From Verrucomicrobiales bacterium (lineage in GTDB: Bacteria > Verrucomicrobiota > Verrucomicrobiia > Limisphaerales > F1-80-MAGS106), in the NCBI GenBank assembly GCA_005805305.1, contig SYMW01000029.1:1-54850 (forward strand): a DNA stretch of 54,850 nt, in the 5' to 3' direction. Position 1 is the stretch's first letter. Every line of letters starts with the position of its first letter. The position numbers and the translations under genes are program-made. The notes beneath the pieces were generated by a model that saw only the letters and a program-made list of their open reading frames with translations, was not told where the DNA came from and did no database searches. This document shows, one piece after another, positions 29,069 to 42,520 of this stretch.

Positions 29069-30499
29069 TCAGACGATCTGGGAGATGACATCGCCTTTGA
29101 GCAAAGTGAGGCGCTCGTCGCGCCCTCCGTAGGGGTAAGTCAACTCGTCGTCTTCGAATCCGAGCTGATGCAAGAGCGTCGTGTGGATGTCCCGGAAATG
29201 TCGCGGCTCACGAACGGCGCGCAAACCAATATCGTCCGTCGCTCCCACGACCTGGCCTCCCTTGATCCCGCCACCGGCGAGCCACATGGTGAAACCGAGG
29301 TTGTGATGGTCCCGCCCCTTGCCTCCTTCCGCTTCAGGTGAACGCCCGAACTCGCCGCCCCAGAGCACCAGCGTGGAATCCAGCAGACCGCGCCTCTTTA
29401 AGTCACGAAGCAGTCCGGCGATGGGTTTGTCCGTCTCCACGGCCATGCGAAGGTGGTTCTCTTCGATATCGCCGTGAGCGTCCCATTGCTTGTTGCCCGG
29501 GCCTCCGCCCGAAACGACGCAGATGAATCGGACTCCCGTCTCAACGAGCCGGCGAGCCAGCAAACAGCGTCGTCCGTAATCGTCGGTTGGCTCCTTGCCA
29601 ACCCCATACAGATCCAACGTCTCCAGGCTCTCTCGCGACAAATCGAAGACCGAAGGGGCCTCCATTTGCATCTTGAAAGCGAGGTCGTAGGTGTTGATTC
29701 GGGCCGAAAACTCGTCGTCCTGTGGCGCGGGATTTGCCTCGTTCAGCCCGCGGATCAGCCGAATCGTCTCACGGCGTTGAGCCATCGAGACGCCGGGTGG
29801 CAAGTCCAGGTTCAGCACGGGACGCTGGCCGGGTCGAAACATGGTGGGCTGGTGGGCGGCGGGGAGAAATCCATTGGAATACATCGGCTGTCCTCCCTCA
29901 AGCGCCCCGTCTGGATCCGGCATCACCACGTAGCCGGGCATCGAATCGCTTTCCGAACCAAGGCCGTAGGTAACCCATGAGCCCATGCTTGGGAACCCGG
30001 GAACGATGCGGCCTGTGAACAACTCGTATTGCGCGGCCGAGTGCACGACGCGGTCGCCGTGGCATGAACGAATGACGGCCAAATCGTCCACGCATTGGGC
30101 GGTATGGGGAAAAAGATCGGACACCTCGATGCCGGAGCGCCCATAATTTCTAAACGTCCGGCGAGTGCCCAACAGTTTCGCGTCTTTCTTGACAAACTGA
30201 TAGAGCGCCTCGCCGAACTCTTTGGGCCGGGGCTGGCCATTGAGTTTGGTCAGCAGAGGCTTGGGGTCGAACGTTTCGATGTGGCTCGGCCCGCCCGCCA
30301 TGAAAAGGAAAATCACGGACTTCGCTTTCGCGGCGCGGGGAGGCTGTTTTGGCGACATCGGATTGCTGGCCGCCGCGCGCGCTCTGTCCTGTCTCAAAAG
30401 GCACGCCAAGGCGATCGAGCCGAAGCCGCAGAAGCCGTCGCTGATGAACTCACGGCGCGTGCGAAGGGGCCGAGAATGCCTCAGTCCATCATTCCACAT
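29069..30499 (-). CDS. DUF1501 domain-containing protein (sulfatase-like fold, Tat signal)
   Basis: Twin-arginine motif TRREFI. FLFMAGGPSHIETFDPKP, GRDHHNLGFTMWLAGGGIKGG and a C-terminal RLT...G.V. Overlaps the upstream DUF1553 gene by 11 nt. Confidence 0.9.
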   Translation of the reverse strand: MWNDGLRHSRPLRTRREFISDGFCGFGSIALACLLRQDRARAAASNPMSPKQPPRAAKAKSVIFLFMAGGPSHIETFDPKPLLTKLNGQPRPKEFGEALYQFVKKDAKLLGTRRTFRNYGRSGIEVSDLFPHTAQCVDDLAVIRSCHGDRVVHSAAQYELFTGRIVPGFPSMGSWVTYGLGSESDSMPGYVVMPDPDGALEGGQPMYSNGFLPAAHQPTMFRPGQRPVLNLDLPPGVSMAQRRETIRLIRGLNEANPAPQDDEFSARINTYDLAFKMQMEAPSVFDLSRESLETLDLYGVGKEPTDDYGRRCLLARRLVETGVRFICVVSGGGPGNKQWDAHGDIEENHLRMAVETDKPIAGLLRDLKRRGLLDSTLVLWGGEFGRSPEAEGGKGRDHHNLGFTMWLAGGGIKGGQVVGATDDIGLRAVREPRHFRDIHTTLLHQLGFEDDELTYPYGGRDERLTLLKGDVISQIV

Positions 30500-32465
30500 A
30501 GAGAAACGAGTTAAGGTTGAAGAGAGCCAGCGCGAATTCCTTTGGCGGGGAACGCCTCAAGAATTCGAGCGCCAGAGTTTGCTCTGCGGTCGTGGGGGCG
30601 CGGCCCGCCACCAGGAGGTAGGCACGGTGGATTTGGCCGCGCGGGTTGTCACCGCTCTCGCGCCGCAGCCGGTCGGCGAAAGCCGCGGCGAGTTCATTCG
30701 AGATGCGCCCGTTCAACATCTCAAGCGCCTGAGGGGCATGGGTGCTGGACTCGCGTCTCGGACAACTGGCTTGGAGCAGGGGCTGGTCGAAAACCTGAAA
30801 GAAAGGAAGCGGCAGATTGCGCTTGGCGATGAGGTAGATGGAGCGCCGAAAATGCTGGCTCGGATCGTCTGTGACATGCCATTGAGACGGTTTGTAAAGC
30901 TGGCCGACCAAATCCTGCTCGACCGGCAGCATCACGCTCTCGCCACCGCCTTGGGGATTCAGAACGCCCGCCACGGCGAGCATCGCATCGCGCAACTCCT
31001 CGGCCGCGAGCCGGCGCCGGTTGAAATGCCATAACAATCGGTTGTCAGGATCGGCCGCTTTTCCTTTCGCCATTGAAACCCGAGGATTCAACACCGCCTG
31101 CCGATAACACGCGCTGGTCACCAGGAGTCGGTGCAAGGATTTCAAGCTCCATTGACGGCCCAAGAGCTCGCTCGCCAGGTAATCGAGCAGTTCGGGATGG
31201 CTTGGGCGGTCTCCATTCGCGCCAAAATCGTTGGGAGTCCTCACGAGGCCAGCGCCAAAATGCTGCTGCCAGATTCGGTTCACGATCACCCGCGAGGTGA
31301 GGGGGTTGCTGGAATCCGTCAGCCACCGCGCGAGTATCGTTCTCGGATTGGGGGTCTCCGGCGGCAACTCCGCCGCGCCCGAGGGCCAGAGAACACTCAC
31401 TCCTTTCAAACCCACCTGTTCCTCCTTGCGGTCGGGATCGCCTCTTTTGAGCACATGGACCGGCGTGACTTGAGCCAGGTCGTTCCGGATGCTAGCGAGG
31501 GACGGCAGTGGTTTTGGGAGGCTCTCCTCGGTCTTCCTGATCTGTTCGCGCAAACGCGCCTCAGCCTCCCCGGAAGTGCCTTTGAGGGATTCCTTGAGAC
31601 GGGCGATTTCCTCATTTAAAGCGTCCGTGCGCGTCTTCCATGCCGCGTGCTCGGCGGGGCTCACGCGCGGGATATCATTCTCTTGGGTCGCCGCCAGGAA
31701 CGCCTGGAGTTGATAATAATCCTTCTGCGAAACAGGGTCGAACTTGTGGTCGTGGCAGCGGGCGCAGCCGACCGTCAAACCGAGGAATGCGGCGCCGATC
31801 ATATCCGTTCGCTCGGTCAAAACTTCGTTCCGGCTCGCGGAGACTTCTTGATTGCCGGCGTTGCGACGCACCGGGCCGAGGCGATGAAATCCCGCGGCGA
31901 CCTGCATCGTGGGATCATGGGGCGCGAGTTCATCCCCCGCCAACTGCGCCGTGAGAAAGTGATCAAACGGGGTGTCGGAGCGAACGCTTTCGACGACGAA
32001 ATCCCGAAATCGCCACGCGCCGGGCACCGCTCGATCATACTCGAAGCCCTCGGTTTCGGCGAAACGCACGACATCGAGCCAGTGCTGACCCCACTTTTCT
32101 CCGTGGGCCGGACTGGCCAGCAATCGGTCCACTAATTTCTCGTAAGCGTCCGGGCTGGCGTCGGCGAGAAAGCCCGCGACTTCCCCGGGTGTTGGAGGGA
32201 GTCCCGTGAGATCAAAAGTCACTCGGCGGATCAAGTCTTGGCGGGAGGCGGGGGGGGCGGGCTCCAACCCGGCGGCTTCGATCCTGGCGAGAATGAAGTG
32301 GTCCACGGGGGATTTTGTCCACAAAGGGTTCACGACCGCAGGTGGTGAGAATGGCTTAACCGGTTGAAAGGACCAAAACGCCCGCTCCTTCGCGCCGATT
32401 GTTCCGCCATGGAGTTGCGCGACTGTCGAAAGCGTGGCGAGCAGAACAATCACCCATGCCCGCAT
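30489..32465 (-). CDS. DUF1549 (PSCyt2) / DUF1553 (PSD1) protein, no N-terminal cytochrome domain
   Basis: SPVDHFILARIEAAGLEPAPPASRQDLIRRVTFDLTGLPPTP, internal CARCHDHKFDP, LTSRVIVNRIWQQHFGAGLV...HPELLDWLA. Start taken at MRAWVIVLLATLSTVAQLHG (32465); ATG 32561 is also possible. Confidence 0.88.
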   Translation of the reverse strand: MRAWVIVLLATLSTVAQLHGGTIGAKERAFWSFQPVKPFSPPAVVNPLWTKSPVDHFILARIEAAGLEPAPPASRQDLIRRVTFDLTGLPPTPGEVAGFLADASPDAYEKLVDRLLASPAHGEKWGQHWLDVVRFAETEGFEYDRAVPGAWRFRDFVVESVRSDTPFDHFLTAQLAGDELAPHDPTMQVAAGFHRLGPVRRNAGNQEVSASRNEVLTERTDMIGAAFLGLTVGCARCHDHKFDPVSQKDYYQLQAFLAATQENDIPRVSPAEHAAWKTRTDALNEEIARLKESLKGTSGEAEARLREQIRKTEESLPKPLPSLASIRNDLAQVTPVHVLKRGDPDRKEEQVGLKGVSVLWPSGAAELPPETPNPRTILARWLTDSSNPLTSRVIVNRIWQQHFGAGLVRTPNDFGANGDRPSHPELLDYLASELLGRQWSLKSLHRLLVTSACYRQAVLNPRVSMAKGKAADPDNRLLWHFNRRRLAAEELRDAMLAVAGVLNPQGGGESVMLPVEQDLVGQLYKPSQWHVTDDPSQHFRRSIYLIAKRNLPLPFFQVFDQPLLQASCPRRESSTHAPQALEMLNGRISNELAAAFADRLRRESGDNPRGQIHRAYLLVAGRAPTTAEQTLALEFLRRSPPKEFALALFNLNSFLYVE

Positions 32466-32668
32466 GCAACGAACGCCCGGCAGTTCGGGGTGCGCGGACA
32501 GGGCGTCTTTTAAACGGAGGTGATCGAGCTGGTTGTTGCTGGGTGTTTTGATTCTATTCATTCTCGCACACTTCCAGAGACTGCGACAACGAGAAAACGG
32601 TGTGGGCAGCTCCCAGCCGCAGGCCCGAGTTGCGCACCGCGACTTTGGTGAGGGTCTTGTTTGCTTCA

Positions 32669-32802
32669 CATGAACCGAATTCCTGGGAGCGCGGCCATCC
32701 CGGCCGTAGCAGCTTCGCGGCACGGCAAGCAGGTTCACGATTCTACCTTCCTGGAATTGCAAACATGCTGTGGCCAGGCTGGCCGCGCTCCCAGGTTCAT
32801 GG
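32669..32802. repeat. ~134-bp imperfect palindromic element bounded by CATGAACC...GGTTCATGG (left flank of island)
   Basis: The left arm catgaaccgaattcctgggagcgcggcc (32669-32696) is the near reverse complement of the right arm ggccgcgctcccaggttcatgg (32781-32802). Confidence 0.7.
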
Positions 32803-32952
32803 CCTCGATTCAGGAGTTCAGACCACGTTTATTTGATTTTGGTTCGGCCACCAAGTGACACAAACAATCCCGCGTTTGGGGTGCGGTTGGTGTGGTTTTT
32901 CGTTCGGATTTCGGATTTGGACAGGACTTCCGTTCTGTTCTATCCTGCCTCC

Positions 32953-33747
32953 ATGAAAAGTCCGTTTCCTGGGATGGACCCTTACTTGGAAGCCCGATGG
33001 AGCGACGTGCATCAAGGCCTTATCACGTACGCCCGGGATTCACTGCAGCCAAACTTGCCTTCCGACCTGCGCGCCCGCATCGAGGAACGCGTATTCGTCG
33101 AAACCGAAACGGAGCAAATCCGCGGGATCGTTCCTGACCTTCATGTGGCCCCGTATCAACCGAAACAGGCCATCCATTCCACGCTCCATGAGGCGGGTGA
33201 GGTTGTGGTCGCTGAGCCGATGGTTTTTCTCCTGGAAGACGAGGCCGTGACGGAAGGCTACATCGAAATCCGCGAACGCGGTGGCGGCAGGGTCGTTACG
33301 GTCATTGAGTTTCTCAGCCCAGCCAACAAAGCTGGCGGCGAAGGCCGCAAGCATTACCTTCAGAAACAGCGCGAAATCTTGAAATCGAACACGAATTTGG
33401 TCGAGATCGACCTCCTGCGCTCGGGACAACGGGTCATAGCATTCCCTGAACACCGAATCCCGTCGAGGCATCGCGGCGATTACCTGGTGTGTGTGCGTTG
33501 CGCCTGGTCTGAGCGCGCCCGCGAGCTTTACGCCCTGCCCCTGCGCGACCGGCTGCCCGCCATCCCGGTTCCGTTGCGTGGGACTGATCGTCCCATCCTG
33601 CTCGATCTGCAGGCGTTGATGGACCAATGCTACCGCAACGGCCGCTACGATGACATCGATTATGCCCAGCCGCCCTCTCCTCCGCTCACGGCGGGACACG
33701 CGGAATGGGCCGACGCGTTGCTGAAGGCTGCTGGGAAACGCCCGTGA
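32953..33747 (+). CDS. DUF4058 domain-containing protein (Uma2-like PD-(D/E)xK nuclease-fold impression)
   Basis: Starts MKSPFPGMDPYLEARWSDVHQGLI (DUF4058 N-terminal signature). Has VPDLHV ... VVTVIEFLSPANK ... LVEIDLLR, resembling the PD...E-x-L-S-P-x-N-K arrangement of Uma2-type endonucleases. Confidence 0.8.
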   Translation: MKSPFPGMDPYLEARWSDVHQGLITYARDSLQPNLPSDLRARIEERVFVETETEQIRGIVPDLHVAPYQPKQAIHSTLHEAGEVVVAEPMVFLLEDEAVTEGYIEIRERGGGRVVTVIEFLSPANKAGGEGRKHYLQKQREILKSNTNLVEIDLLRSGQRVIAFPEHRIPSRHRGDYLVCVRCAWSERARELYALPLRDRLPAIPVPLRGTDRPILLDLQALMDQCYRNGRYDDIDYAQPPSPPLTAGHAEWADALLKAAGKRP

Positions 33748-33851
33748 CGCGTGTGGTGTGGCCGGGTAACGGGTAAGGAGCTGGTCCCGTGTCCAATCGA
33801 GTGCTCGGCTTTGCTGCTAACACATGCCGGCTTCAGCGTCATGCTGCGTTC

Positions 33852-34019
33852 ATGAAAAGTCTGTTCCCCGGAATGGATCTTTATTTGGAGACGCATTGGG
33901 AAGACGTGTATCGGAGGTTCCTCGTTGACGCCGTGTCGCTGAAGCAACGGATGTCCGTCCTGCCGGTTCCGCTCCGCCGGCCCGAAGCCTCGGCGACGCT
34001 CGACCTCCATGCGCTGGTT
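33852..34019 (+). pseudogene. DUF4058 remnant (internally deleted second copy)
   Basis: MKSLFPGMDLYLETHWEDVYRRF matches the N-terminus of the intact copy. LPVPLRRPEASATLDLHAL matches IPVPLRGTDRPILLDLQAL near its C-terminus. The ~200 codons in between are missing. Confidence 0.6.
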
Positions 34020-34072
34020 TCCTCTGACCACAAAAGGATTTGTTTGTTTGAAATGGCGGCGGTTTTGCTATC

Positions 34073-34402
34073 ATGCGGGTGGACATGAAGCCTGTTTACG
34101 AAGGCAACCCGAAGCACAAAGCGCCCTGGCAGCCGGGGCGCAAGGGATCGCTCTGCCCAACGGATGTCAGCATCGAGCGTGCGCGGGAGCTTCTCCAGTC
34201 GAGCGTCGAAGAGGGGAAGATGCGGTTTGCCGCCGACAAAGGCCGGGCCTTCTGCGCTCGCATCCATGACACGGCCAAGAACCGGTGGCACGGGTATCCT
34301 GTAGCATGGAAGGAAGTGCCGATCTCGGTTCGCACCCGGTTGTTGAAAACTGGCGCGGTAGTGCCCCACGAAATCAAGCGGTATTGGGAGGGAGCGCAGT
34401 GA
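34073..34402 (+). CDS. small basic hypothetical protein (WHGYPV motif), partner of the ImmA/IrrE-domain protein
   Basis: 109 aa (105 aa from ATG 34085, MKPVYEGNPKHK...). Protein-like composition. The stop overlaps the GTG start of the next gene (GTGA). No family recognised with confidence. Confidence 0.6.
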   Translation: MRVDMKPVYEGNPKHKAPWQPGRKGSLCPTDVSIERARELLQSSVEEGKMRFAADKGRAFCARIHDTAKNRWHGYPVAWKEVPISVRTRLLKTGAVVPHEIKRYWEGAQ

Positions 34403-36018
34403 GCCTGAAGCTCCATCAACGCCCAGCGGTGGAGTCGGGCGACCCGAATCAATTCGCGATCCGGATGGAATTCGTTCCGAATCTGGATTCTGGATTCGCC
34501 ATGCCGGAGGAAGATCTTTCTTGGGGTCGGATGCAAATCTGGGTTGCGGGTCGGAATCTGTGCGAACATGTGGATCGCAGCGAAGTGCGGAAGGCAGTGG
34601 AGTGGTACCTCCTGCCCGTGATGGAGTGGCTGACGGAGTCCTGGGACTTGCTGCTCCACGAACAACGACCGCCCGTGTCGAATGCCGGCGAGTCCGCCTG
34701 GCATTCTCTGGCGGAGACGAATCGTCCTGAGCGATTCGAGCGGGCCGGCAACTGGGATAGAGTTGCGGACGAGGCGCACACTTTGTGGACCTCCCATCAT
34801 TGTCTGCGTACGAGCCGGTTTGGCGGAATCTTCCCCGACGTGGTAGTTCGTCGTTTGCGGGATGAAGTGGAATTCTCCTGGGGGGAGACCCCGCAGGTTG
34901 GCGCACCCGATGGATTTCGCTTCCTGCATGGTGCAGGAAAAACTCTCGTGACACCCGACGCTGTCGCGAGTCCGCTTTTCGATGTGCTGCGTCAGTCAAT
35001 CGAGGCGCTGGCCGAGGAGCAACCGCAATCAAACCGTCTGCGAACCCTGTGCCAGCAAGTTGCAGGCATCGCAAGCGCCGACCGCCAAATCAGGAGGACT
35101 GCCCTCCTGGCTGGGCTTGGAGCGACGTCCGGGGATTGGGTGAACCGCTGGCAAAACCTTCGCAGTACGCTGGAGACGGAATGCTCCGGCTACAAGGAAT
35201 CAATAAAACGGTGGTTTGAGCCGGAGCAAGGCAACAGGTTGTGTGTTGCGGGCAGCTGCGAAGCGGCGGTCATGTTCGGCTCAGCGTCTCCCACGCTTAC
35301 CGAGAGCGATGTTCTGTTGATCGCAACCCGTTTGGTGAGGTCATCGGGCAAGCAACCTTCCGCAAAGTGGACGGCGTTGGCGAACGAGCCACAACCGCTC
35401 CCAGCCGGTGAATCACCATGGACGGATGGCTATCGGCTGGCGCAGGAGTGGAGAGCCAAAGCGGGTATACGCCACAAACGCGACGGGGCCGTGGATGTTG
35501 AGGAACATCTCGAAAGACTGGGTGTGAGTTTTGAGGATATTAAGCTAGACGACGCCACCACTGCAGGCCTGGCTGTCCAGCCGGAACAAGGCGCGCCGCA
35601 TATTTTTGTGAACCGGCGAAATCCGCGTTGTGAATTTCCATCAGGCAAGCGGTTCATCCTCGCTCACGAGCTTTGCCATCTTCTTCACGACCGCTCTCAC
35701 GGGCGCAACCTTGCAATGATCTCCGGCCCCTGGGCGCCGCGAGACCTCGAGAAGCGAGCCAATGCCTTTGCCGCGGCGCTGCTGATGCCACCGGAATTGC
35801 TCAAGAAAGGATTGCACAGCGATGACGATCTCGAATTTGAGGGTTTGTTAGCTCTTGCAAAACGCCTTCGCGTCAGCACGGACGCCCTTGCGCACCATCT
35901 CGCGAACTGCAACTTGATCAGCGAGGCAACGCGAGACGTTCTGCTGGCTCAACTGGTCAATCGTCAGGAGGCCGGAAACGGCACAAAGCGGACGGCACGC
36001 AAGCAGTCCAAGAGTTAA
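34399..36018 (+). CDS. 539-aa protein: uncharacterised N-terminal ~390 aa + C-terminal ImmA/IrrE (COG2856, M78-like) zinc metallopeptidase
   Basis: FILAHELCHLLHD (HEXXH at nt 35665-35679) followed by ANAFAAALLMPPELL. GTG 34399 is in frame with track ORF 34285..36018 and overlaps the upstream stop. The first 38 track codons overlap the small ORF and are probably not translated. Confidence 0.8.
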   Translation: MSLKLHQRPAVESGDPNQFAIRMEFVPNLDSGFAMPEEDLSWGRMQIWVAGRNLCEHVDRSEVRKAVEWYLLPVMEWLTESWDLLLHEQRPPVSNAGESAWHSLAETNRPERFERAGNWDRVADEAHTLWTSHHCLRTSRFGGIFPDVVVRRLRDEVEFSWGETPQVGAPDGFRFLHGAGKTLVTPDAVASPLFDVLRQSIEALAEEQPQSNRLRTLCQQVAGIASADRQIRRTALLAGLGATSGDWVNRWQNLRSTLETECSGYKESIKRWFEPEQGNRLCVAGSCEAAVMFGSASPTLTESDVLLIATRLVRSSGKQPSAKWTALANEPQPLPAGESPWTDGYRLAQEWRAKAGIRHKRDGAVDVEEHLERLGVSFEDIKLDDATTAGLAVQPEQGAPHIFVNRRNPRCEFPSGKRFILAHELCHLLHDRSHGRNLAMISGPWAPRDLEKRANAFAAALLMPPELLKKGLHSDDDLEFEGLLALAKRLRVSTDALAHHLANCNLISEATRDVLLAQLVNRQEAGNGTKRTARKQSKS

Positions 36019-36118: not shown

Positions 36119-36355
36119 TCAGCATCCCAATTGAGGGAATCCGTCCCCCCGGATGTCATCAAACATCGAAGGAAATTTGCCTGAGTCAGCCCGGTTTGGG
36201 TTAAGGAACCGTGCAATAATTCGGGCGACCGCATTACGGCATATTTGGCGGATTCGCTCACGGGTAAGCCCGAACTTCGCGCCGACTCCTTCAAGGGTAA
36301 GCGTCGCCCCGAGAGCGAAGGGGTCAGTCCTTACTTGCGACACATCGGGGTTCAT
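36119..36355 (-). CDS. stand-alone sigma-70 region-4-like HTH protein (78 aa)
   Basis: TLEGVGAKFGLTRERIRQICRNAVARI closely mimics the region 4.2 HTH of primary sigma factors (TLEEVG..F.VTRERIRQIE). No regions 1-3 in any frame upstream. Could be a small regulator or a gene fragment. Confidence 0.5.
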   Translation of the reverse strand: MNPDVSQVRTDPFALGATLTLEGVGAKFGLTRERIRQICRNAVARIIARFLNPNRADSGKFPSMFDDIRGDGFPQLGC

Positions 36356-36449: not shown

Positions 36450-36863
36450 TCATGGTCTCGCCTCCACCGGGAGCAGGCTCAGGACAAAATCGAAAATGGC
36501 TTGAGCGTGTTCGAGTGCCGCGTCAAATTCCTCTGGCGACGGCATCGGGTCGTCCGTAAGTCCCGGATATCGGAAGGCAGAAACATAGGGGGTCAAAATC
36601 TCCGCCGCTTCCTCGAACTGCGCAAAGTCAATCTTGTCATCCGCGGCGTCTGTGATCAATCAAATCAGGTCGTGTGTCTTGGCGACCTTGATGCCCCGCC
36701 AGGTCAGCCACCCTTTCAACGATTTCTACGCTGCTTGCTGGCAGTGGTAAATGGCCGTGTCCAGCGGGCCGTCCGGCGTGGCGCTGACAATTCGGGCGTT
36801 TTGCAGGTCGTGCACGGCTTTCGTGAGCCACTCGCGGGTGAGCCGGGCGAGGTTGTCAGCCAT
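36450..36863 (-). pseudogene. HEPN-domain protein gene interrupted by two in-frame stop codons (partner of the MNT gene)
   Basis: A single frame reads MADNLARLTREWLTKAVHDLQNARIVSATPDGPLDTAIYHCQQAA*KSLKGWLTWRGIKVAKTHDLI*LITDAADD...SAFRYPG...VEARP. TAG at 36726-36728 and TGA at 36660-36662, with no frameshift. The ATG overlaps the MNT stop (ATGGCTGA). Confidence 0.8.
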
Positions 36864-37200
36864 AGAGCTTCCTGCCCTGCGCGAGAATTTGGTGCTGTAA
36901 CGAAGCGCGCAAATCCTTGTAGCGATCGAATTCCTCCCGCGTTTGCACAAACACGTCCTTGCTCAGCCGCAGTCCCCGCAGACAGCGATGCGCCCGTTGC
37001 ATCCGACGGATCGCTCGCTCGCCGCTCTCGCGGACGATCACCATCAAGTCCACGTCGCTGTCCTCATGCGGCGTGCCCCACGCGTGAGAGCCAAACAAAA
37101 TAATTTGCTCTGGCTGGAACTCGGCTTTCAGCCGTTCCACGACCTCCGCCAACAAACCTGACGGGATTGTCTTCAAGGTATCCAGAGTAACATGTGCCAA
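36856..37200 (-). CDS. minimal nucleotidyltransferase (MNT/MntA-like)
   Basis: ILFGSHAWGTPHEDSDVDLMVIV is the GSx(n)DxD pol-beta-type NTase motif. 114 aa with a TTG start. Sits immediately 5' of the HEPN gene in the usual MNT-HEPN order. Confidence 0.85.
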   Translation of the reverse strand: MAHVTLDTLKTIPSGLLAEVVERLKAEFQPEQIILFGSHAWGTPHEDSDVDLMVIVRESGERAIRRMQRAHRCLRGLRLSKDVFVQTREEFDRYKDLRASLQHQILAQGRKLYG

Positions 37201-37218: not shown

Positions 37219-37347
37219 CCATGAACCGCACGGTAGGGCAAGGTGTCCCCACCGAGCCGTCGGGGCTCCGGAAACTCATGGGCTCCTGACGGCTCGCTGA
37301 GGACAGCTCGCCCTACCCGTCAAATCGCCATTTGACCTGGTTCATGG
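37219..37347. repeat. ~129-bp imperfect palindromic element bounded by CCATGAACC...GGTTCATGG (right flank of island)
   Basis: Arms are ccatgaacc..ggtagggcaaggtgtcc..gagccgtc and gacggctc..ggacagctcgccctacc..ggttcatgg. Same termini as the element at 32669..32802. Confidence 0.7.
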
Positions 37348-37384
37348 CCCCGATTCATGTCTAAAATTTGGAGGTGTTTCCTTT

Positions 37385-37595
37385 CCTTGAACCGTCTTGC
37401 AGGAGCCGACGTGAGGCTCACTTCTCCCCCTTGGAGTGTCAGAGCCTCCTTCCGTCGACACCTACAGGTTCATGGTCCCAATGCGAGCCGCGAATCGGTT
37501 TGGTGGCTACCCGTAAACCTGTAACCGACAGGGATGCGAAGCACCGCAGACCTCATTCTGAACGACGTGGAACGTTACTGCGGCTCGGTTCATGG
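37385..37595 (+). repeat. degenerate tandem units (~120-128 bp period) carrying the GGTTCATGG core
   Basis: GGTTCATGG occurs at 37339, 37467 and 37587, and the variant CCTTGAACC at 37385. After each core comes a similar (Y)CCC(R)AT...GG..G stretch. Confidence 0.55.
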
Positions 37596-37715
37596 TTGCA
37601 AAGCATGCGCAAAGCAAAGAGAGGCTCTCCAAAAAGGGCAGGACTGGATGCCCATTCGACGGCGTGGCCGAAGCAATAAACGGTTCGGTTTTTAACTACC
37701 CAGAAACGGGATCCG

Positions 37716-40700
37716 ATGTATGTTCAGTCATCGTCATTGATTATGAAGGGAAATCGCCGTCAATTTAGTCTGAACGCAGTTTTTTGTCTGGGAGTTCTGG
37801 TCTGCGTGCTGTCCACCACGACCCAAGCCGCGTCCTCCCAACTTCAATTTAACCGCGATATCCGCCCGATCCTGGCGGACAATTGCCTGGCCTGTCACGG
37901 GCCGGATTCGGCCAAGCGAAAGGCGAGCCTTCGGCTGGACACGAAGGAGGGGCTTTATGGGGCGACGAAGGACGAAGGCGCCGTGGTGAGCCCTGGGAGC
38001 TTGGAACAAAGCGCGCTTTGGAAAAGGATCACCACGACGGACCAAGACGATCTGATGCCGCCTCCCGATTCCCACAAGAAGCTGACCCCGGACCAGAAGG
38101 AAACGCTCAGGCGCTGGATTGCTGGCGGCGCGGAGTGGGAGTCCCATTGGTCCTTCATCAAGCCCGAGCGCCCTCCGGTGCCCGCAGTCAAGAACGCTCG
38201 GTGGATCCGGAACCCCATCGACGCATTCGTGCTGGCCAAGCTGGAGGAGCGGGGATTGTCTCCCGCTCCCGAGGCGGACCGCCGCGCGCTCGCCCGGAGA
38301 CTGGCGCTTGATTTGACCGGCCTGCCTCCCAATCCTCAGGATCTGGAGGCCTTTATCGCCGATCGTTCGCCGGATTATTACGAAAAGTTCGTGAAAAAGC
38401 TCCTGAACTCCGAGAGCTGGGGTGAGCATCGAGCCCGTTATTGGCTCGATGCCGCGCGTTACGCGGATACCCACGGCCTGCATTTTGATAATTACCGGGA
38501 GATGTGGCCCTACCGTGATTGGGTGATCCGGGCTTTCAACTCCAACAAAACCTTCGACCAATTCGTGATCGAACAAATTGCCGGGGATCTGCTGCCGGAG
38601 CCCACCCAGGACCAACTCGTCGCCACAGGGTTTCACCGATGCAACATGACGACCAACGAGGGGGGAACAATCGAGGAGGAGAATCTCGCCAATTACGCGC
38701 ACGACAGGGTGACAACGACCGGATGGGTGTTCCTCGGGCTCACATTGAACTGCGCGTCGTGCCATGACCATAAGTTCGATCCCGTTTCCACGCGCGATTT
38801 CTATTCGATGGCCGCATTTTTTAGAAACACGACCCAGCCGGCAATGGATGGCAACGTGAAAGACTCCGGCCCCAGCATTACCGTCGTCACGGACCCCATG
38901 GATTTGCGGCGATGGCAGGCCCTTCCAGAGGAGGTCGCAAGCGCGAAGCGGAGCCTGGAGAAGGTGCGGAAGGAGGCGGAGCCGGGGTTTTCGAAATGGA
39001 TCGACGGCCTGCGCAAGGAGGATTTAGAGAAGGACCTGGGAGGCGAGGGGCTCGCGTTTCACGCCCCACTGAACGATGGGAGCACCAACGAAATCCGCTA
39101 CCTCGTGCGTGGAGCCGAGGGAAGAACACGCCCCTCGGGGGAGTTGCAGATCAAGGCGGAAGGGAAGACCGGCCCCGCGCCGCGTTTTGGCAAGAGTGTC
39201 ACGGCCTCTTTTGCTAACGTTGGAGACTACGATCGGCAGCAACCTTTCTCATTTGGATCCTGGGTGCATGTCCCGGAGAATTACAATGGGACGGCCGCCA
39301 TCCTGTCCCGCATGGATGAAAACAACCAATATCGCGGCTGGGATCTGTGGATTCAAAATGGTCAGTTCGCGTCGCACATCGTGCATAATTGGCCGGAGAA
39401 TGCCATCAAAGTCCGAACTGCCAAGCGCCTCGCCAAAAAAGGCCAATGGCAGCATGTCTTGGCCACCTATGACGGATCGGGGAAAGCCGCCGGATTGAAG
39501 ATCTATGTGGACGGCTTGCCGGCCGGCCTGGAAGTCGAGAACGGAGCCGGGATCAATGACTCCATTAAGACGGATGCTCCCTTCAGGCTCGCGCAGCGTA
39601 CGGGAACCGCCCATTTCGATGGAGCCGCCTTGCAGGACGTGCGGATTTACTCGCGTCTGCTCGCGGCCGCTGAGGTCGCGACGCTCGCCAACTCGGCGAC
39701 GCTGGCCGAATCCTTGGGAAAGCCATTGGATCAGTGGAAACCAGACTCGAAACAGCAGGCTCTCAGCTACTATCTCGCGACCCGTGATCCGCTTTATCAA
39801 GGAGCGGTGAGCCACTTGGAATCACTGGAACAGGAGAGGGAGGGGATTCGGCTCCGAAGCCCGGTGACGCATGTGCAGGTGGAAAAGAAGAATTCCGAGG
39901 CGATGGCGGCCGTGTTGTTTCGAGGGCAGTATGACAAACCAAAGGAGAAAGTGGCCGCGGACGTGGTGGAGGCACTTCATCCCCTCGCGAAGGAAGAGCC
40001 GCGCAATCGGCTGGGCTTGGCCCATTGGCTGGTGTCACCAGAGAACGCCCTCACATCCAGGGTCACCGTGAACCGTTTTTGGCAGGAAGTGTTTGGAGCC
40101 GGCCTCGTGGCGACGGTGGAAGATTTCGGGGTGATGGGCGAGAACCCATCCAATCAGGCGCTCCTGGATTGGCTGGCCGTGGAATTCAGGGAGGGCGGTT
40201 GGGACGTGAAAAAGCTTTTTGCCTTGATGGTTGGTTCCGCCGCTTACCGGCAGAGTGCCTCCTCGACTCCGACGAAACTCGACAAGGATCCCGGGAACCG
40301 GCTGGTGAGCCGCGGCCCGCGATTTCGGATGGATGGCGAGATGATTCGCGATTACGCGCTCGCGATCAGCGGCCTGTTGGTATCGAAAATTGGAGGCCCA
40401 AGCGTGAAGCCCTATCAACCCGAAGGAGTTTGGGAGGCGGTGGCGATGCCGGAGAGCAACACACGCCGCTACCAGCGCGATTTAGGCGAATCGCTGTATC
40501 GGCGGAGTCTCTACACCTTTTGGAAACGCGCCGCCCCTCCCGCGGTGCTGGACATCTTCAACGCGCCGAGCCGGGAGACATGCACGGTGCGGCGGGAGCG
40601 CACAAACACTCCCCTTCAAGCACTGGCCACGATGAACGATCCCCAGTTTGTGGAAGCGGCGAGGAAACTGGCCGAGACCGCCTTGGAGCAATCCCAAAAC

Positions 40701-40952
40701 GATGCCAAAAAAGCGATGGCCTTCATCACCAAAAGGGTTTTGGCTCGCGAACCGCGCGGTTCGGAATCCGAAGTGCTCAGGGACGCGCTCTCCCAGTTCC
40801 AAACGTTCTATAAGGCTCATCCCGAAGAAGCACGGAAACTCATCGGCGTCGGCGAGTCCAAGCCGAGCTCCGCGTTGGATCCTTCCCAACTGGCGGCGGT
40901 GACCTTGGTCGCCAATCAAATACTCAACCTCGATGAAGCCCTCAACAAATAA
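37716..40952 (+). CDS. PSCyt1 (CxxCH) + DUF1549/PSCyt2 + LamG-like insert + DUF1553/PSD1 protein
   Basis: CLACHGPD (nt 37884-37898). NPIDAFVLAKLEERGLSPAPEADRRALARRLALDLTGLPPNP. Internal CASCHDHKFDP. Concanavalin/LamG-like block at about aa 445-655. LTSRVTVNRFWQEVFGAGLV...LLDWLAVEF. ATG 37743 is an alternative start. Confidence 0.9.
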   Translation: MYVQSSSLIMKGNRRQFSLNAVFCLGVLVCVLSTTTQAASSQLQFNRDIRPILADNCLACHGPDSAKRKASLRLDTKEGLYGATKDEGAVVSPGSLEQSALWKRITTTDQDDLMPPPDSHKKLTPDQKETLRRWIAGGAEWESHWSFIKPERPPVPAVKNARWIRNPIDAFVLAKLEERGLSPAPEADRRALARRLALDLTGLPPNPQDLEAFIADRSPDYYEKFVKKLLNSESWGEHRARYWLDAARYADTHGLHFDNYREMWPYRDWVIRAFNSNKTFDQFVIEQIAGDLLPEPTQDQLVATGFHRCNMTTNEGGTIEEENLANYAHDRVTTTGWVFLGLTLNCASCHDHKFDPVSTRDFYSMAAFFRNTTQPAMDGNVKDSGPSITVVTDPMDLRRWQALPEEVASAKRSLEKVRKEAEPGFSKWIDGLRKEDLEKDLGGEGLAFHAPLNDGSTNEIRYLVRGAEGRTRPSGELQIKAEGKTGPAPRFGKSVTASFANVGDYDRQQPFSFGSWVHVPENYNGTAAILSRMDENNQYRGWDLWIQNGQFASHIVHNWPENAIKVRTAKRLAKKGQWQHVLATYDGSGKAAGLKIYVDGLPAGLEVENGAGINDSIKTDAPFRLAQRTGTAHFDGAALQDVRIYSRLLAAAEVATLANSATLAESLGKPLDQWKPDSKQQALSYYLATRDPLYQGAVSHLESLEQEREGIRLRSPVTHVQVEKKNSEAMAAVLFRGQYDKPKEKVAADVVEALHPLAKEEPRNRLGLAHWLVSPENALTSRVTVNRFWQEVFGAGLVATVEDFGVMGENPSNQALLDWLAVEFREGGWDVKKLFALMVGSAAYRQSASSTPTKLDKDPGNRLVSRGPRFRMDGEMIRDYALAISGLLVSKIGGPSVKPYQPEGVWEAVAMPESNTRRYQRDLGESLYRRSLYTFWKRAAPPAVLDIFNAPSRETCTVRRERTNTPLQALATMNDPQFVEAARKLAETALEQSQNDAKKAMAFITKRVLAREPRGSESEVLRDALSQFQTFYKAHPEEARKLIGVGESKPSSALDPSQLAAVTLVANQILNLDEALNK

Positions 40953-41065: not shown

Positions 41066-42520
41066 ATGAACTTCTTAAACGATTACTCGAAATTTGAGAC
41101 TCGGCGGCAGTTTTTCGCCCGGGGGAAGAACGCCCTGGGTTACGCCGCGCTCACTTCCCTGATGGGCCGCAGCCTTGATCTTTGGGCGAGCGACACGGCT
41201 CCTTCCATGCTGCCGCATTTTCCGCCCAAAGCCAAGCGCGTGATTTATCTTCACATGGTTGGGGGGCCGTCGCAAATGGATCTGTATGACCACAAACCCG
41301 TGATGGGCGAGTGGTACGACAAAGACCTCCCTGAATCCATTCGGATGGGTCAGCGGCTGACGACCATGACCAGCGGCCAAAAGCGATTTCCGATCGCCCC
41401 TTCCAAGTACCGATTCAAGCGGCATGGCCAGTGCGGGATGTGGGTCAGTGAAGTCCTCCCTTGGACCGCGAAGTGCGTGGACGACATGGCGTTCATCCGA
41501 TCCATGCACACGGAGGCCATCAACCACGAACCAGCCATCTGCCATATACAGACAGGGAATCAGATACAAGGCCGACCGTGCATCGGCTCCTGGGTGAGCT
41601 ATGGCCTCGGTTCCTTGAACGAAAACCTGCCGACCTTTGTGGTGCTCGTGGCTGAACCCACCAACAAGGAGCAACTCCAGGCCATTAGCGGCAGGTTATG
41701 GTCGAGCGGCTACCTTTCCGGGGAGCACTCGGGGGTTTCCTTCCGTTCCCAGGGCGATCCGATCCTTTTCATCGCCAACCCGCCAGGGGTCAGTAGCGGG
41801 CTGCGTCGAACTCAGCTCGACGGATTGAAACGTTTGAATGAGATGAATTTCAAAGCCGTGGGTGACCCGGAGACCCACACTCGCATCCAGCAGTTCGAGA
41901 TGGCGTTCAAGATGCAATCTAGCGTGCCCGAGCTCACGAACGTAAAAAACGAGCCTGACTCCACATACAAACTTTACGGGGAAGAAGCGCGCAAGCCCGG
42001 CACTTTCGCCTATACCGCGCTGCTGGCGCGGCGTTTGGTGGAACGTGGGGTTCGCTTCGTGCAGATCTATCACAACAACTGGGATCATCATGCGAATGTG
42101 TCAGGGCGCATGCCCTCACAATGCAGGGACGTGGATCAGCCCACTCATGGCCTCATCCACGATCTCAAGGCTCGGGGAATGTTTGAAGACACCCTCATCA
42201 TCTGGGGTGGTGAATTCGGGAGGACCATTTACAGCCAGGGCGGCCTCACGAAGGAAAATTACGGGCGCGATCACCATCCTCGTTGCTTCACGATTTGGAT
42301 GGCCGGGGCCGGGATCAAGGGCGGCACGATCTATGGGCAGACAGACGAGTTCAGCTACAACATTGTTGAGAATCCCGTTCATGTTCGTGATTTCCACGCG
42401 ACGCTCCTGCACCTCCTGGGCATCAAACACGACCGGTTCACTTTCAAATACCAGGGCCTCGACAATAAATTGACCGGCGTCGACGCAGAAGCCCAGGTGG
42501 TGAAGGAACTCCTGGCCTGA
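41066..42520 (+). CDS. DUF1501 domain-containing protein (Tat signal)
   Basis: TRRQFF twin-arginine motif, IYLHMVGGPSQMDLYDHKP, GRDHHPRCFTIWMAGAGIKGG. Confidence 0.92.
   Translation: MNFLNDYSKFETRRQFFARGKNALGYAALTSLMGRSLDLWASDTAPSMLPHFPPKAKRVIYLHMVGGPSQMDLYDHKPVMGEWYDKDLPESIRMGQRLTTMTSGQKRFPIAPSKYRFKRHGQCGMWVSEVLPWTAKCVDDMAFIRSMHTEAINHEPAICHIQTGNQIQGRPCIGSWVSYGLGSLNENLPTFVVLVAEPTNKEQLQAISGRLWSSGYLSGEHSGVSFRSQGDPILFIANPPGVSSGLRRTQLDGLKRLNEMNFKAVGDPETHTRIQQFEMAFKMQSSVPELTNVKNEPDSTYKLYGEEARKPGTFAYTALLARRLVERGVRFVQIYHNNWDHHANVSGRMPSQCRDVDQPTHGLIHDLKARGMFEDTLIIWGGEFGRTIYSQGGLTKENYGRDHHPRCFTIWMAGAGIKGGTIYGQTDEFSYNIVENPVHVRDFHATLLHLLGIKHDRFTFKYQGLDNKLTGVDAEAQVVKELLA

Follow-up and report, generated by a model that had tools for sequence, protein, structure and literature searches.

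A translationally coupled gene pair of a Verrucomicrobiales bacterium with a predicted RNase-type toxin and an ImmA/IrrE-peptidase partner, a likely toxin-antitoxin-type module found in about twelve phyla

What would a small basic protein do when its gene runs directly into that of a large ImmA/IrrE-type peptidase protein, and no Xre-type repressor accompanies the two? This question is raised by a gene pair at positions 34073-36018 of contig SYMW01000029.1 (assembly GCA_005805305.1) of a Verrucomicrobiales bacterium; the whole analysed stretch of 54,850 nucleotides is referred to as the window, and all coordinates are positions within it. An earlier note, made from the sequence alone, had proposed the pair as a candidate novel toxin/defence module. 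In public annotations the small product is a ‘hypothetical protein’ and the large one an ‘ImmA/IrrE family metallo-endopeptidase’; we found no paper describing the pair in a literature coverage that was incomplete. Here, we argue with a probability of about 0.6 that the two genes form a self-contained toxin-antitoxin (TA)-type module of the ImmA-peptidase (Rosmer-like) kind, composed of a ribonuclease (RNase)-type toxin and a peptidase partner. The elements of the pair are as follows.

34085..34402, forward strand: small gene, encoding a basic protein of 105 amino acids (aa), a predicted RNase-type toxin; alternative start at ATG 34073
34399..36018, forward strand: large gene, encoding a 539-aa protein, the predicted antitoxin/sensor partner
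34399..34402, forward strand: GTGA, small-gene stop overlapping the large-gene start, as read from the sequence
34387..34391, forward strand: GGAGG, a presumed Shine-Dalgarno-like element 7 nt 5' of the large-gene GTG, within the end of the small gene
34048..34074, forward strand: promoter-like block 5' of the small gene, with TTGAAA (34048-34053), 15 nt and TGCTATCAT (34066-34074, extended -10-like)

The open reading frame (ORF) 34073/34085..34402 on the forward strand encodes the peptides KHKAPWQPGRKGSLCP, RFAADKGRAFCARIH, NRWHGYPVAWKEVP and IKRYW, and its product is basic, as described in the earlier note, with an isoelectric point (pI) of 9.95 and 20 Lys and Arg versus 11 Asp and Glu. The TGA stop of this ORF was confirmed at 34400-34402, overlapped by the GTG at 34399 that opens the 539-aa frame ending at 36018. 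Position 34399 was taken as the large-gene start because its homologues share the MSLK start in the alignment, and the alternative GTG at 34285 was ruled out by the same comparison. For the small gene, a start at ATG 34085 is more probable than one at ATG 34073, judging from the sequence, since most homologues are 105 aa long and begin with M-x-P/L-V-Y-E, and since ATG 34073 falls within the conserved promoter-like block. This block, which may function as a promoter, is kept in the close relatives L091 and L173 and in part in L011; it was missed by the consensus promoter scan because its spacer is 15 nt. It should be added that a stretch at 34030-34075 (CCACAAAAGGATTTGTTTGTTTGAAATGGCGGCGGTTTTGCTATCAT) is conserved among close relatives whose other upstream DNA is unrelated, and is a candidate promoter/operator with an extended -10; were it the promoter, the leader before ATG 34085 would be only a few bases long.

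The conservation of the arrangement was surveyed from both sides, as the earlier note had proposed. Scanning of the large-protein alignment over one genome per species returned 80 full-length loci (the large-anchored set), and a metagenome scan with the small-protein alignment provided 77 loci with room for a neighbour (the small-anchored set). Of the 77 large-anchored loci with upstream room, 71 have a small-family gene immediately 5' of the large gene on the same strand (intact in 62), and the large ImmA/IrrE gene directly follows the small one in 76 of the 77 small-anchored loci. The 4-nt ATGA/GTGA overlap is present in roughly 40% of the loci listed, and in nearly all the others the genes overlap by 1 nt or are spaced by 2-12 nt. 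Overlap or short spacing across loci, along with the strict co-occurrence, bears out the translational coupling suggested from the window copy alone. The large-anchored loci are distributed among Verrucomicrobiota, Planctomycetota, Actinomycetota, Alpha- and Gammaproteobacteria, Acidobacteriota, Spirochaetota, Myxococcota, Chloroflexota, Desulfobacterota-type lineages, Rhodothermales, Hydrogenedentota and Binatia, the pair being spread over approximately 12 phyla; among cultured actinomycetes it occurs in Streptomyces sp. NBC_00191, Frankia sp. Cr3, Acrocarpospora corrugata NBRC 13972 and Sphaerisporangium melleum JCM 13064. The small ORF has 54 close homologues, and the profile search with its family reached 303 clusters at 50% identity; for the large protein, full-length homologues (515-555 aa) extend down to about 35% identity. 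Hundreds of homologues of each protein and a gene order conserved across phyla mean that the pair is not a chance arrangement of ORFs.

When 3,255 ORFs flanking about 170 loci were clustered by blast, no third conserved gene emerged, the largest cluster, of generic ABC ATPases, covering 14 loci; a conserved third component was therefore ruled out within this set. The neighbour genes differ from locus to locus and are often housekeeping ones. Furthermore, the distances among small proteins and among large proteins correlate (r ~0.8), which points at inheritance as a unit without swapping of partners, and the co-divergence of the small protein is slightly tighter with the N-terminal domain of the large one once the M78 peptidase domain has been controlled for. 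The two genes are thus an obligate, translationally coupled and self-contained module.

Even divergent members of the small family (L179, L180) still precede the N-terminal domain of the large family. The 417-kb plasmid pTs417 of Ca. Thiodictyon syntrophicum carries a very divergent pair (L172, 4887-9234) of 134 aa and 486 aa with a 4-nt overlap, located about 2 kb upstream of a mazEF pair. By hhalign, its large protein matches the family at 99.8% over 451 columns and its small protein at 95.8%, the latter keeping the PKH, CP and WHGWP motifs (N-terminal NRPKH).

The small protein was related to a defence-system effector by profile comparison. The PADLOC NsnC profile PDLC03898 was matched by 25 of 29 diverse members of the small family (best E-value 3.4e-27), always at profile positions ~175-262 of 263. 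The homology thus concerns the C-terminal ~85 residues of several PADLOC NsnC profiles and spans the whole small protein. The C-terminal region of NsnC is the polymorphic effector of the Menshen system and comprises fifteen families, nine of them RNases of the BECR (barnase/EndoU/colicin E5-D/RelE) type (PMC12065111). The best 150 of the 303 small-family clusters are nearly all stand-alone proteins of 70-200 aa.

The AlphaFold2 model of the small protein (predicted local distance difference test, pLDDT, 80.6) exhibits a helix (30-39), four antiparallel strands (41-43, 46-51, 54-62 and 67-73) and two C-terminal helices; its core, made of helix 30-39 and the strands, reaches a pLDDT of 82-95, and the N-terminal peptide (aa 1-28) is poorly placed. 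The helix and four antiparallel strands of the BECR RNase fold are present in this model. Its top Foldseek match was 5t87, chains E/F, with a probability of 0.99, a template modelling score of 0.62-0.66 by target length, a root-mean-square deviation of 2.1-2.6 Å and 22-24% identity over 65-68 columns; these two chains were the only high-probability entries among the 50 matches listed. The approximately 79 residues of 5t87 are the CdiA toxin tip of the C. taiwanensis CdiA-CT/CdiI complex (PMC9111745). The ParE1 structure 8c24_B was reached only with an E-value of 1.8.

Conservation points at three segments of the small gene.

34112..34117, forward strand: K10-H11 codons, candidate catalytic residues in the conserved N-terminal peptide YEGNPKHKxPWQPGRKGSLCP
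34223..34225, forward strand: R47 codon, candidate catalytic residue, conserved in 97% of 66 sequences
34286..34300, forward strand: codons of W68-H69-G70-Y71-P72 (WHGYP), last core strand; H69 and G70 invariant, W68 and P72 in at least 97%

Residues K10, H11, G18, G21, H69 and G70 are invariant in 66 small-family sequences from about 12 phyla, and each of Y5, C24, R47, W68, P72, W75 and P79 is shared by at least 97% of them. The commonest family of NsnC C-terminal effectors, PB-BECR1, has an H-R-H triad (PMC12065111), to which H11, R47 and H69 may be equivalent. We suggest a link of the small family to BECR because it is homologous to the C-terminal region of NsnC, most families of which are BECR (PMC12065111). 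The small protein is best read, by inference from this homology and the CdiA-CT-like model, as a free-standing RNase-type effector with H11, R47 and H69 plus K10 as candidate catalytic residues, in line with the toxin/effector role envisaged in the earlier note. In turn, the resemblance to colicin E3/cloacin DF13 which that note had suggested found no support: there was no match in Pfam, toxin families included, to an E-value of 1 or among PDB sequences to an E-value of 10, and neither E3, cloacin nor CdiA-CT(ECL) was found among the 50 Foldseek matches listed.

Several unusual relatives should be mentioned here. P0307 (L177, a 1.4-kb contig) is a 377-aa protein with a proline-rich N-terminus followed by two tandem toxin-like cores, and provides the strongest NsnC match of the small family (3.4e-27). 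P0242 (452 aa) and P0315 (326 aa) are built from 5-6 tandem repeats, each of ~63 aa (..GDASKYFGFPITWxGV..R..SL..FL..) that match positions 29-82 of the small-protein profile (E-value about 1e-16 in total) and are without the WHGYP histidine, so that these proteins may be non-catalytic relatives of the core or may match its motif by chance.

The large protein is divided as follows.

34399..35463, forward strand: N-terminal region (aa 1-355), beta-rich at ~aa 1-185, then helical at ~186-355; acidic, pI 5.6; 15 Trp
35512..35901, forward strand: ImmA/IrrE (Peptidase_M78) domain (aa 372-501), PF06114, E-value 1.5e-14, 54.3 bits versus a cut-off of 22
35665..35679, forward strand: HEXXH zinc-binding/catalytic motif (FILAHELCHLLHD), aa 423-427 (H423, E424, L, C, H427)
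35749..35775, forward strand: family signature E451-K-R-A-N-A-F-A-A, E451 being the probable third zinc ligand by analogy with IrrE
35836..35955, forward strand: helical tail after the peptidase core (aa 480-519), with weak helix-turn-helix (HTH)-like similarity

The ImmA/IrrE signature recognised by eye in the earlier note, with HEXXH at 35665-35679 and a further motif about 30 aa on (ANAFAAALLMPPELL, aa 454-468), was corroborated by Pfam and by residue conservation. H423, E424, H427 and E451 are invariant in 34 homologues, and so are R453, A454, A456, F457, A458 and A459; because of the four former residues the M78 peptidase is probably active, as far as can be judged from the sequence. The model of the large protein (pLDDT 85.7, predicted template modelling score 0.85) matched CapP (7t5t), IrrE (3dte) and PprI (8slm) in Foldseek with a probability of 1.00, and PDB sequence matches of the peptidase part were 9vzy, 8slm, 3dte and 7t5t; altogether, the C-terminal third matches CapP, IrrE/PprI, an M78-like regulator of M. 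tuberculosis and phage IrrE-like proteins.

The tail following the peptidase core forms helices 480-490, 494-503 and 509-526 in the model, and its profile at aa 480-519 weakly resembles residues 3-42 of the LacI-family 3ctp (E-value 0.028) and residues 3-41 of PurR 1pru (E-value 0.65). IrrE likewise has an HTH-like segment following its peptidase core. DNA binding by this tail is speculative. The statement in the earlier note that no HTH is present stands for Xre-type domains, but not entirely for this LacI/PurR-like segment.

The region before the peptidase, in which the earlier note had recognised nothing, proved featureless in databases too: its ~370 aa had no match in Pfam, NCBIfam or PHROGs, and PADLOC profiles hit the peptidase part only. 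Likewise, neither Pfam nor the PDB sequences contained a relative of the N-terminal ~350 aa (the N-domain), and Foldseek gave no match to it in PDB or BFVD; assignment of a fold was abandoned, as all these searches returned the peptidase part only. The Foldseek searches proposed in the earlier note were in this way productive for the small protein (5t87) and for the peptidase, but not for the N-domain. An N-domain alignment of 10 sequences (34-45% identity) contains 50 invariant columns, many of them Trp, Gly or Pro. The search with the N-domain profile gave 429 clusters, the best 120 of which are almost all proteins of ~515-555 aa with PF06114; P0369 (487 aa, no Pfam hit) stands apart, as does P0379 (345 aa), an apparent stand-alone N-domain protein that was dismissed as a frameshift split of a normal gene. 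Among these best 120 clusters, the architecture of the N-domain is fixed. Its role may be toxin binding or sensing.

How does the pair relate to systems already described? ImmA-domain proteins are an experimentally supported hub of antitoxins (RosmerTA, NetFlax node D25, RipAB) that are paired with diverse toxins, the toxin gene being first in 58% (PMC10440598, PMC12795458). The comparison with RosmerTA drawn in the earlier note is hence apt: RosmerTA (RmrT/RmrA), NetFlax D25 and RipAB of Streptococcus pneumoniae are likewise two-gene operons, often toxin-first, with an M78-peptidase partner. However, PADLOC RmrA profiles match the large protein only at aa ~366-537 (E-values down to 9e-15), at profile positions ~160-310 of 360-400. 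RmrA and RipB are proteins of about 360-400 aa with an N-terminal Xre-type HTH, whereas the large protein has a ~350-aa domain of no known family and no Xre HTH; moreover, RmrA-type antitoxins swap toxins freely, while the large protein is found with one toxin family only. The pair thus appears, from its sequences, similar to the Rosmer/ImmA hub, yet departs from the architecture of RmrA, having no Xre HTH and a match in the peptidase part only. ImmA/ImmR, IrrE(PprI)/DdrO and CapP/CapH have the M78 fold and catalytic motif in common with the large protein, and the HTH-like segment after the peptidase core of IrrE finds weak similarity in its tail; ImmA, IrrE and CapP are, however, proteins of about 170-330 aa that cut an adjacent repressor of the Xre family, whereas the large protein adjoins a toxin-like protein and no such repressor.

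On the toxin side, the C-terminal effector domain of Menshen NsnC (PDLC03898 and relatives) is homologous to the whole small protein, and its His/Arg/His set recalls PB-BECR1. In NsnC the effector is a domain within a larger protein, N-terminally preceded by an inactive-PIN domain, and the system additionally comprises NsnA (ParB-DUF262) and NsnB (ABC ATPase/DUF3696); here the effector is a separate 105-aa gene, and none of these components accompanies it in the window. The CdiA-CT of Cupriavidus taiwanensis (5T87 E/F), the best structural match to the small-protein core, is the tip of the huge secreted CdiA and is neutralised by the small CdiI, in contrast to the cytoplasmic, stand-alone small protein paired with a peptidase. 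Polymorphic toxin (CdiA/Rhs) cassettes in general have the toxin at the C-terminus of a secreted protein along with a small immunity gene, unlike a stand-alone toxin-like protein followed by a 539-aa peptidase protein.

Proceeding from the two genes with their coupling and strict co-occurrence, the homologies and the intact catalytic motifs, the following course of events may be envisaged. The small 105-aa protein would be the toxin, a free-standing copy of the effector domain that also ends some Menshen NsnC proteins, and most likely a metal-independent ribonuclease using K10/H11, R47 and H69. The large protein would be translated in step with it through the GTGA overlap and its own ribosome-binding site, and its acidic N-terminal 350 aa would most likely bind and silence the toxin; the complementary charges of the small protein (pI 9.95) and the N-domain (pI 5.6) were counted in favour of this. 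By analogy with ImmA, IrrE and CapP, the zinc peptidase would most likely be the switch, activated by a stress or infection cue and then cutting either its own polypeptide or the conserved N-terminal peptide of the toxin. Such cleavage would free (or destroy) the RNase and thereby alter cell growth.

The immediate surroundings of the window copy largely agree with the earlier description of a repeat-bounded stretch flanked by DUF4058 genes and a decayed MNT-HEPN pair. An intact DUF4058 gene (32953-33747, forward strand; Pfam E-value 8e-74) precedes the 5' part of a second one (33789-34088, forward strand), a fragment that extends to where the small gene starts and that repeats the initial 72 nt with 74% identity (direct repeat 32942-33013 / 33841-33912), as if a tandem copy had been cut off at the toxin gene. 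Just downstream of the module, on the reverse strand, lies an MNT-type nucleotidyltransferase gene (36856-37200) whose HEPN partner (36450-36950) is split into the ORFs 36726-36950 and 36450-36659 (Pfam E-value about 1e-3 each), and the stretch 36450-37200 is, by its sequence, a decayed MNT/HEPN TA pair. The nearby insertion sequence (IS) remnant reported earlier was not recovered, as nothing transposase-like was found; a 78-aa ORF at 36119-36355 (reverse strand), matching only sigma-70 region 4 (E-value 9e-7), may be what had been taken for it. A 22-nt repeat, CCAGGTTCATGGCCTCGATTCA, occurs at 32791-32812, 37336-37357, 37464-37485 and 37587-37604; its first copy immediately precedes the DUF4058 gene and the other three a 1078-aa PSD1 gene, and the copies at 32791 and 37336 bracket a 4.5-kb stretch with TA-like genes. 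A 37-nt inverted repeat is located at 32682-32795.

The island is flanked by PSCyt/PSD1 (DUF1549/DUF1553) genes at 30489-32762 (reverse strand), 37716-40952 and 41066-42520 (both forward strand), which are typical of Planctomycetota and Verrucomicrobiota. The guanine-cytosine (GC) content of the pair is 0.59-0.61, like that of the window flanks. In a 91%-identical relative (L173-L176), the same 1078-aa PSD1 and DUF1501 genes follow the pair and the other side is different. On a metagenomic contig (L171, 1-7038) the pair is placed between SNF2/DEAD helicase and NOV_C genes and a DUF1156 gene, and in its large gene a frameshift separates the N-domain from the peptidase. The neighbourhood of SNF2/NOV_C with DUF1156 is typical of DISARM/BREX-like defence loci. 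The term ‘defence island’ used earlier thus fits the TA-like remnants beside the window copy, but not the variable and often housekeeping neighbours across the ~170 loci.

It should also be added that either gene can be lost. The small gene is missing or N-terminally truncated in 15 loci, 14 of which have an intact large gene, and several of these truncations take away the K10-H11 region. An intact small gene next to a split or missing large gene was seen in only one large-anchored locus (L054) and three small-anchored ones (L108, L128 and L162). In L003/L004 the toxin gene is intact and the disrupted large gene retains its N-terminal 222 aa plus the tail. The decay pattern fits, weakly, a dispensable toxin in the small protein; taken together with the L003/L004 lineage and the co-divergence of the N-domain, it is weakly supportive of the mechanism. 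Orphan large genes with no upstream trace of a small gene occur in L012, L028, L039, L061 and L064; all are intact except that of L064, and the protein of L012 is 77% identical to that of the window. On two long-read chromosomes of metagenome-assembled genomes (L060, 3662-5530, and L082, 3785-5530) the large gene shares its reading frame with the N-terminal part of the small gene, and these copies could be real fusions of toxin and partner or frameshift errors.

A number of results weigh against the toxin-antitoxin interpretation. We infer toxicity, RNase activity, the neutralising domain, the peptidase substrate and a phage-defence role. The window small protein itself matched PDLC03898 with a modest E-value of 4.7e-6 and had no family match in Pfam, NCBIfam or PHROGs, and the 5t87 match is weak by its Foldseek E-value (0.027) and confined to the core. 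The K10-H11 segment has a pLDDT of about 50-65, at which an active site is not drawable. An hhalign comparison of the small family with YafQ was not significant (probability 0.6%; the YafQ sequence being approximate), and a direct profile link to a classical BECR toxin was dropped. As the earlier note had stated, no Xre-type gene or domain was found, neither an Xre/HTH_3 domain in the large protein by Pfam nor one in the adjacent ORFs of the window, and the operon would have to be repressed by the large protein, if at all, without the Xre HTH that defines RmrA. Phage or plasmid carriage was rejected: the module had no match in IMG/VR or GenBank phages, the N-domain had none in PLSDB, and the distant pair on the Thiodictyon megaplasmid was the only plasmid case. 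A defence role is possible, with neighbours that are often housekeeping and no support from enrichment. Finally, the decay counts pool two differently anchored samples and may include sequencing frameshifts.

A more novel reading of the pair should also be mentioned. The pair may represent a separate ancient class in which an ImmA-type protease acts directly on the toxin or on its own 350-aa sensor and not on a DNA-binding repressor, with the N-terminal peptide YEGNPKH..PWQPGRKGSLCP as a cleavage or docking site and the N-domain as a new sensor of infection or stress; we regard this as possible and put it forward tentatively. If true, a single effector domain would be under proteolytic control in this pair and under that of an ATPase complex in Menshen. 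An unlikely rival explanation is that of a regulatory protease and its substrate, where the small protein would be a nucleic-acid-binding regulator in the role of ImmR, DdrO or CapH, and the large one would sense stress by its N-domain and cleave the regulator to start a response. All well-studied ImmA/IrrE/CapP peptidases cut a small neighbouring repressor that binds DNA (PMC10440598, PMC12828697). The small protein is strongly basic, a cleavage site might lie in its conserved and flexible N-terminal peptide, and the pair is often placed among housekeeping genes. Yet neither an HTH nor any other known DNA-binding domain is present in the small protein; it is homologous to a defence-system effector domain and resembles a toxin structure, and its invariant Lys/His/His suggest catalysis rather than binding; furthermore, there is no conserved neighbour gene to be regulated, and the small gene was repeatedly lost or truncated with the large gene persisting.

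The same loss pattern bears on a reversal of roles, in which the large peptidase protein would be the harmful component and the small one its inhibitor or antidote. Early comparative genomics and work on Brucella ZnMP/HTH-Xre took the COG2856 peptidase as the toxin (PMC2701414, PMC10538038), and classical type II systems mostly have the antidote gene in first place (PMC10440598). Nevertheless, the 14 of 15 loci that keep an intact large gene without an intact small one would then be lethal, the small protein is related to effector/toxin domains and not to antitoxins, and the ImmA-domain protein acted as the antitoxin in the RosmerTA and RipAB experiments (PMC10440598, PMC12795458), so that we consider this reversal very improbable. 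Somewhat less remote, though still doubtful, is a housekeeping pair for RNA processing or repair, composed of a specific RNase of normal metabolism and its chaperone or maturation protease. It would accommodate the unremarkable GC content of the window copy, the PSD1/DUF1501 neighbours shared with the 91%-identical relative and the absence from phage collections with just one distant plasmid pair; on the other hand, the pair is patchy across phyla with different neighbours in almost every locus, decayed copies are frequent, and some loci lie beside TA/defence genes, such as MazEF (L172), SNF2/NOV_C and DUF1156 (L171) and MNT/HEPN (window).

If the pair is indeed a module of an RNase-type toxin and a peptidase partner, its meaning goes beyond the window. 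ImmA-peptidase antitoxins are an emerging hub of TA and anti-phage systems, in which the control of the toxin by the peptidase is still unclear; the present pair offers a clean case for its study, with a fixed one-to-one pairing, no confusing repressor domain and a partner domain without known relatives. The small-protein family and the N-terminal region of the large protein have no Pfam entry, and the analysis provides a functional lead for two families labelled only generically in databases. The toxin domain is shared with Menshen, the pair extends over about a dozen phyla, and its presence in culturable actinomycetes makes the predictions genetically testable. These proteins would gain in importance should the toxin turn out to be a direct target of the peptidase, or the N-domain a new sensor.

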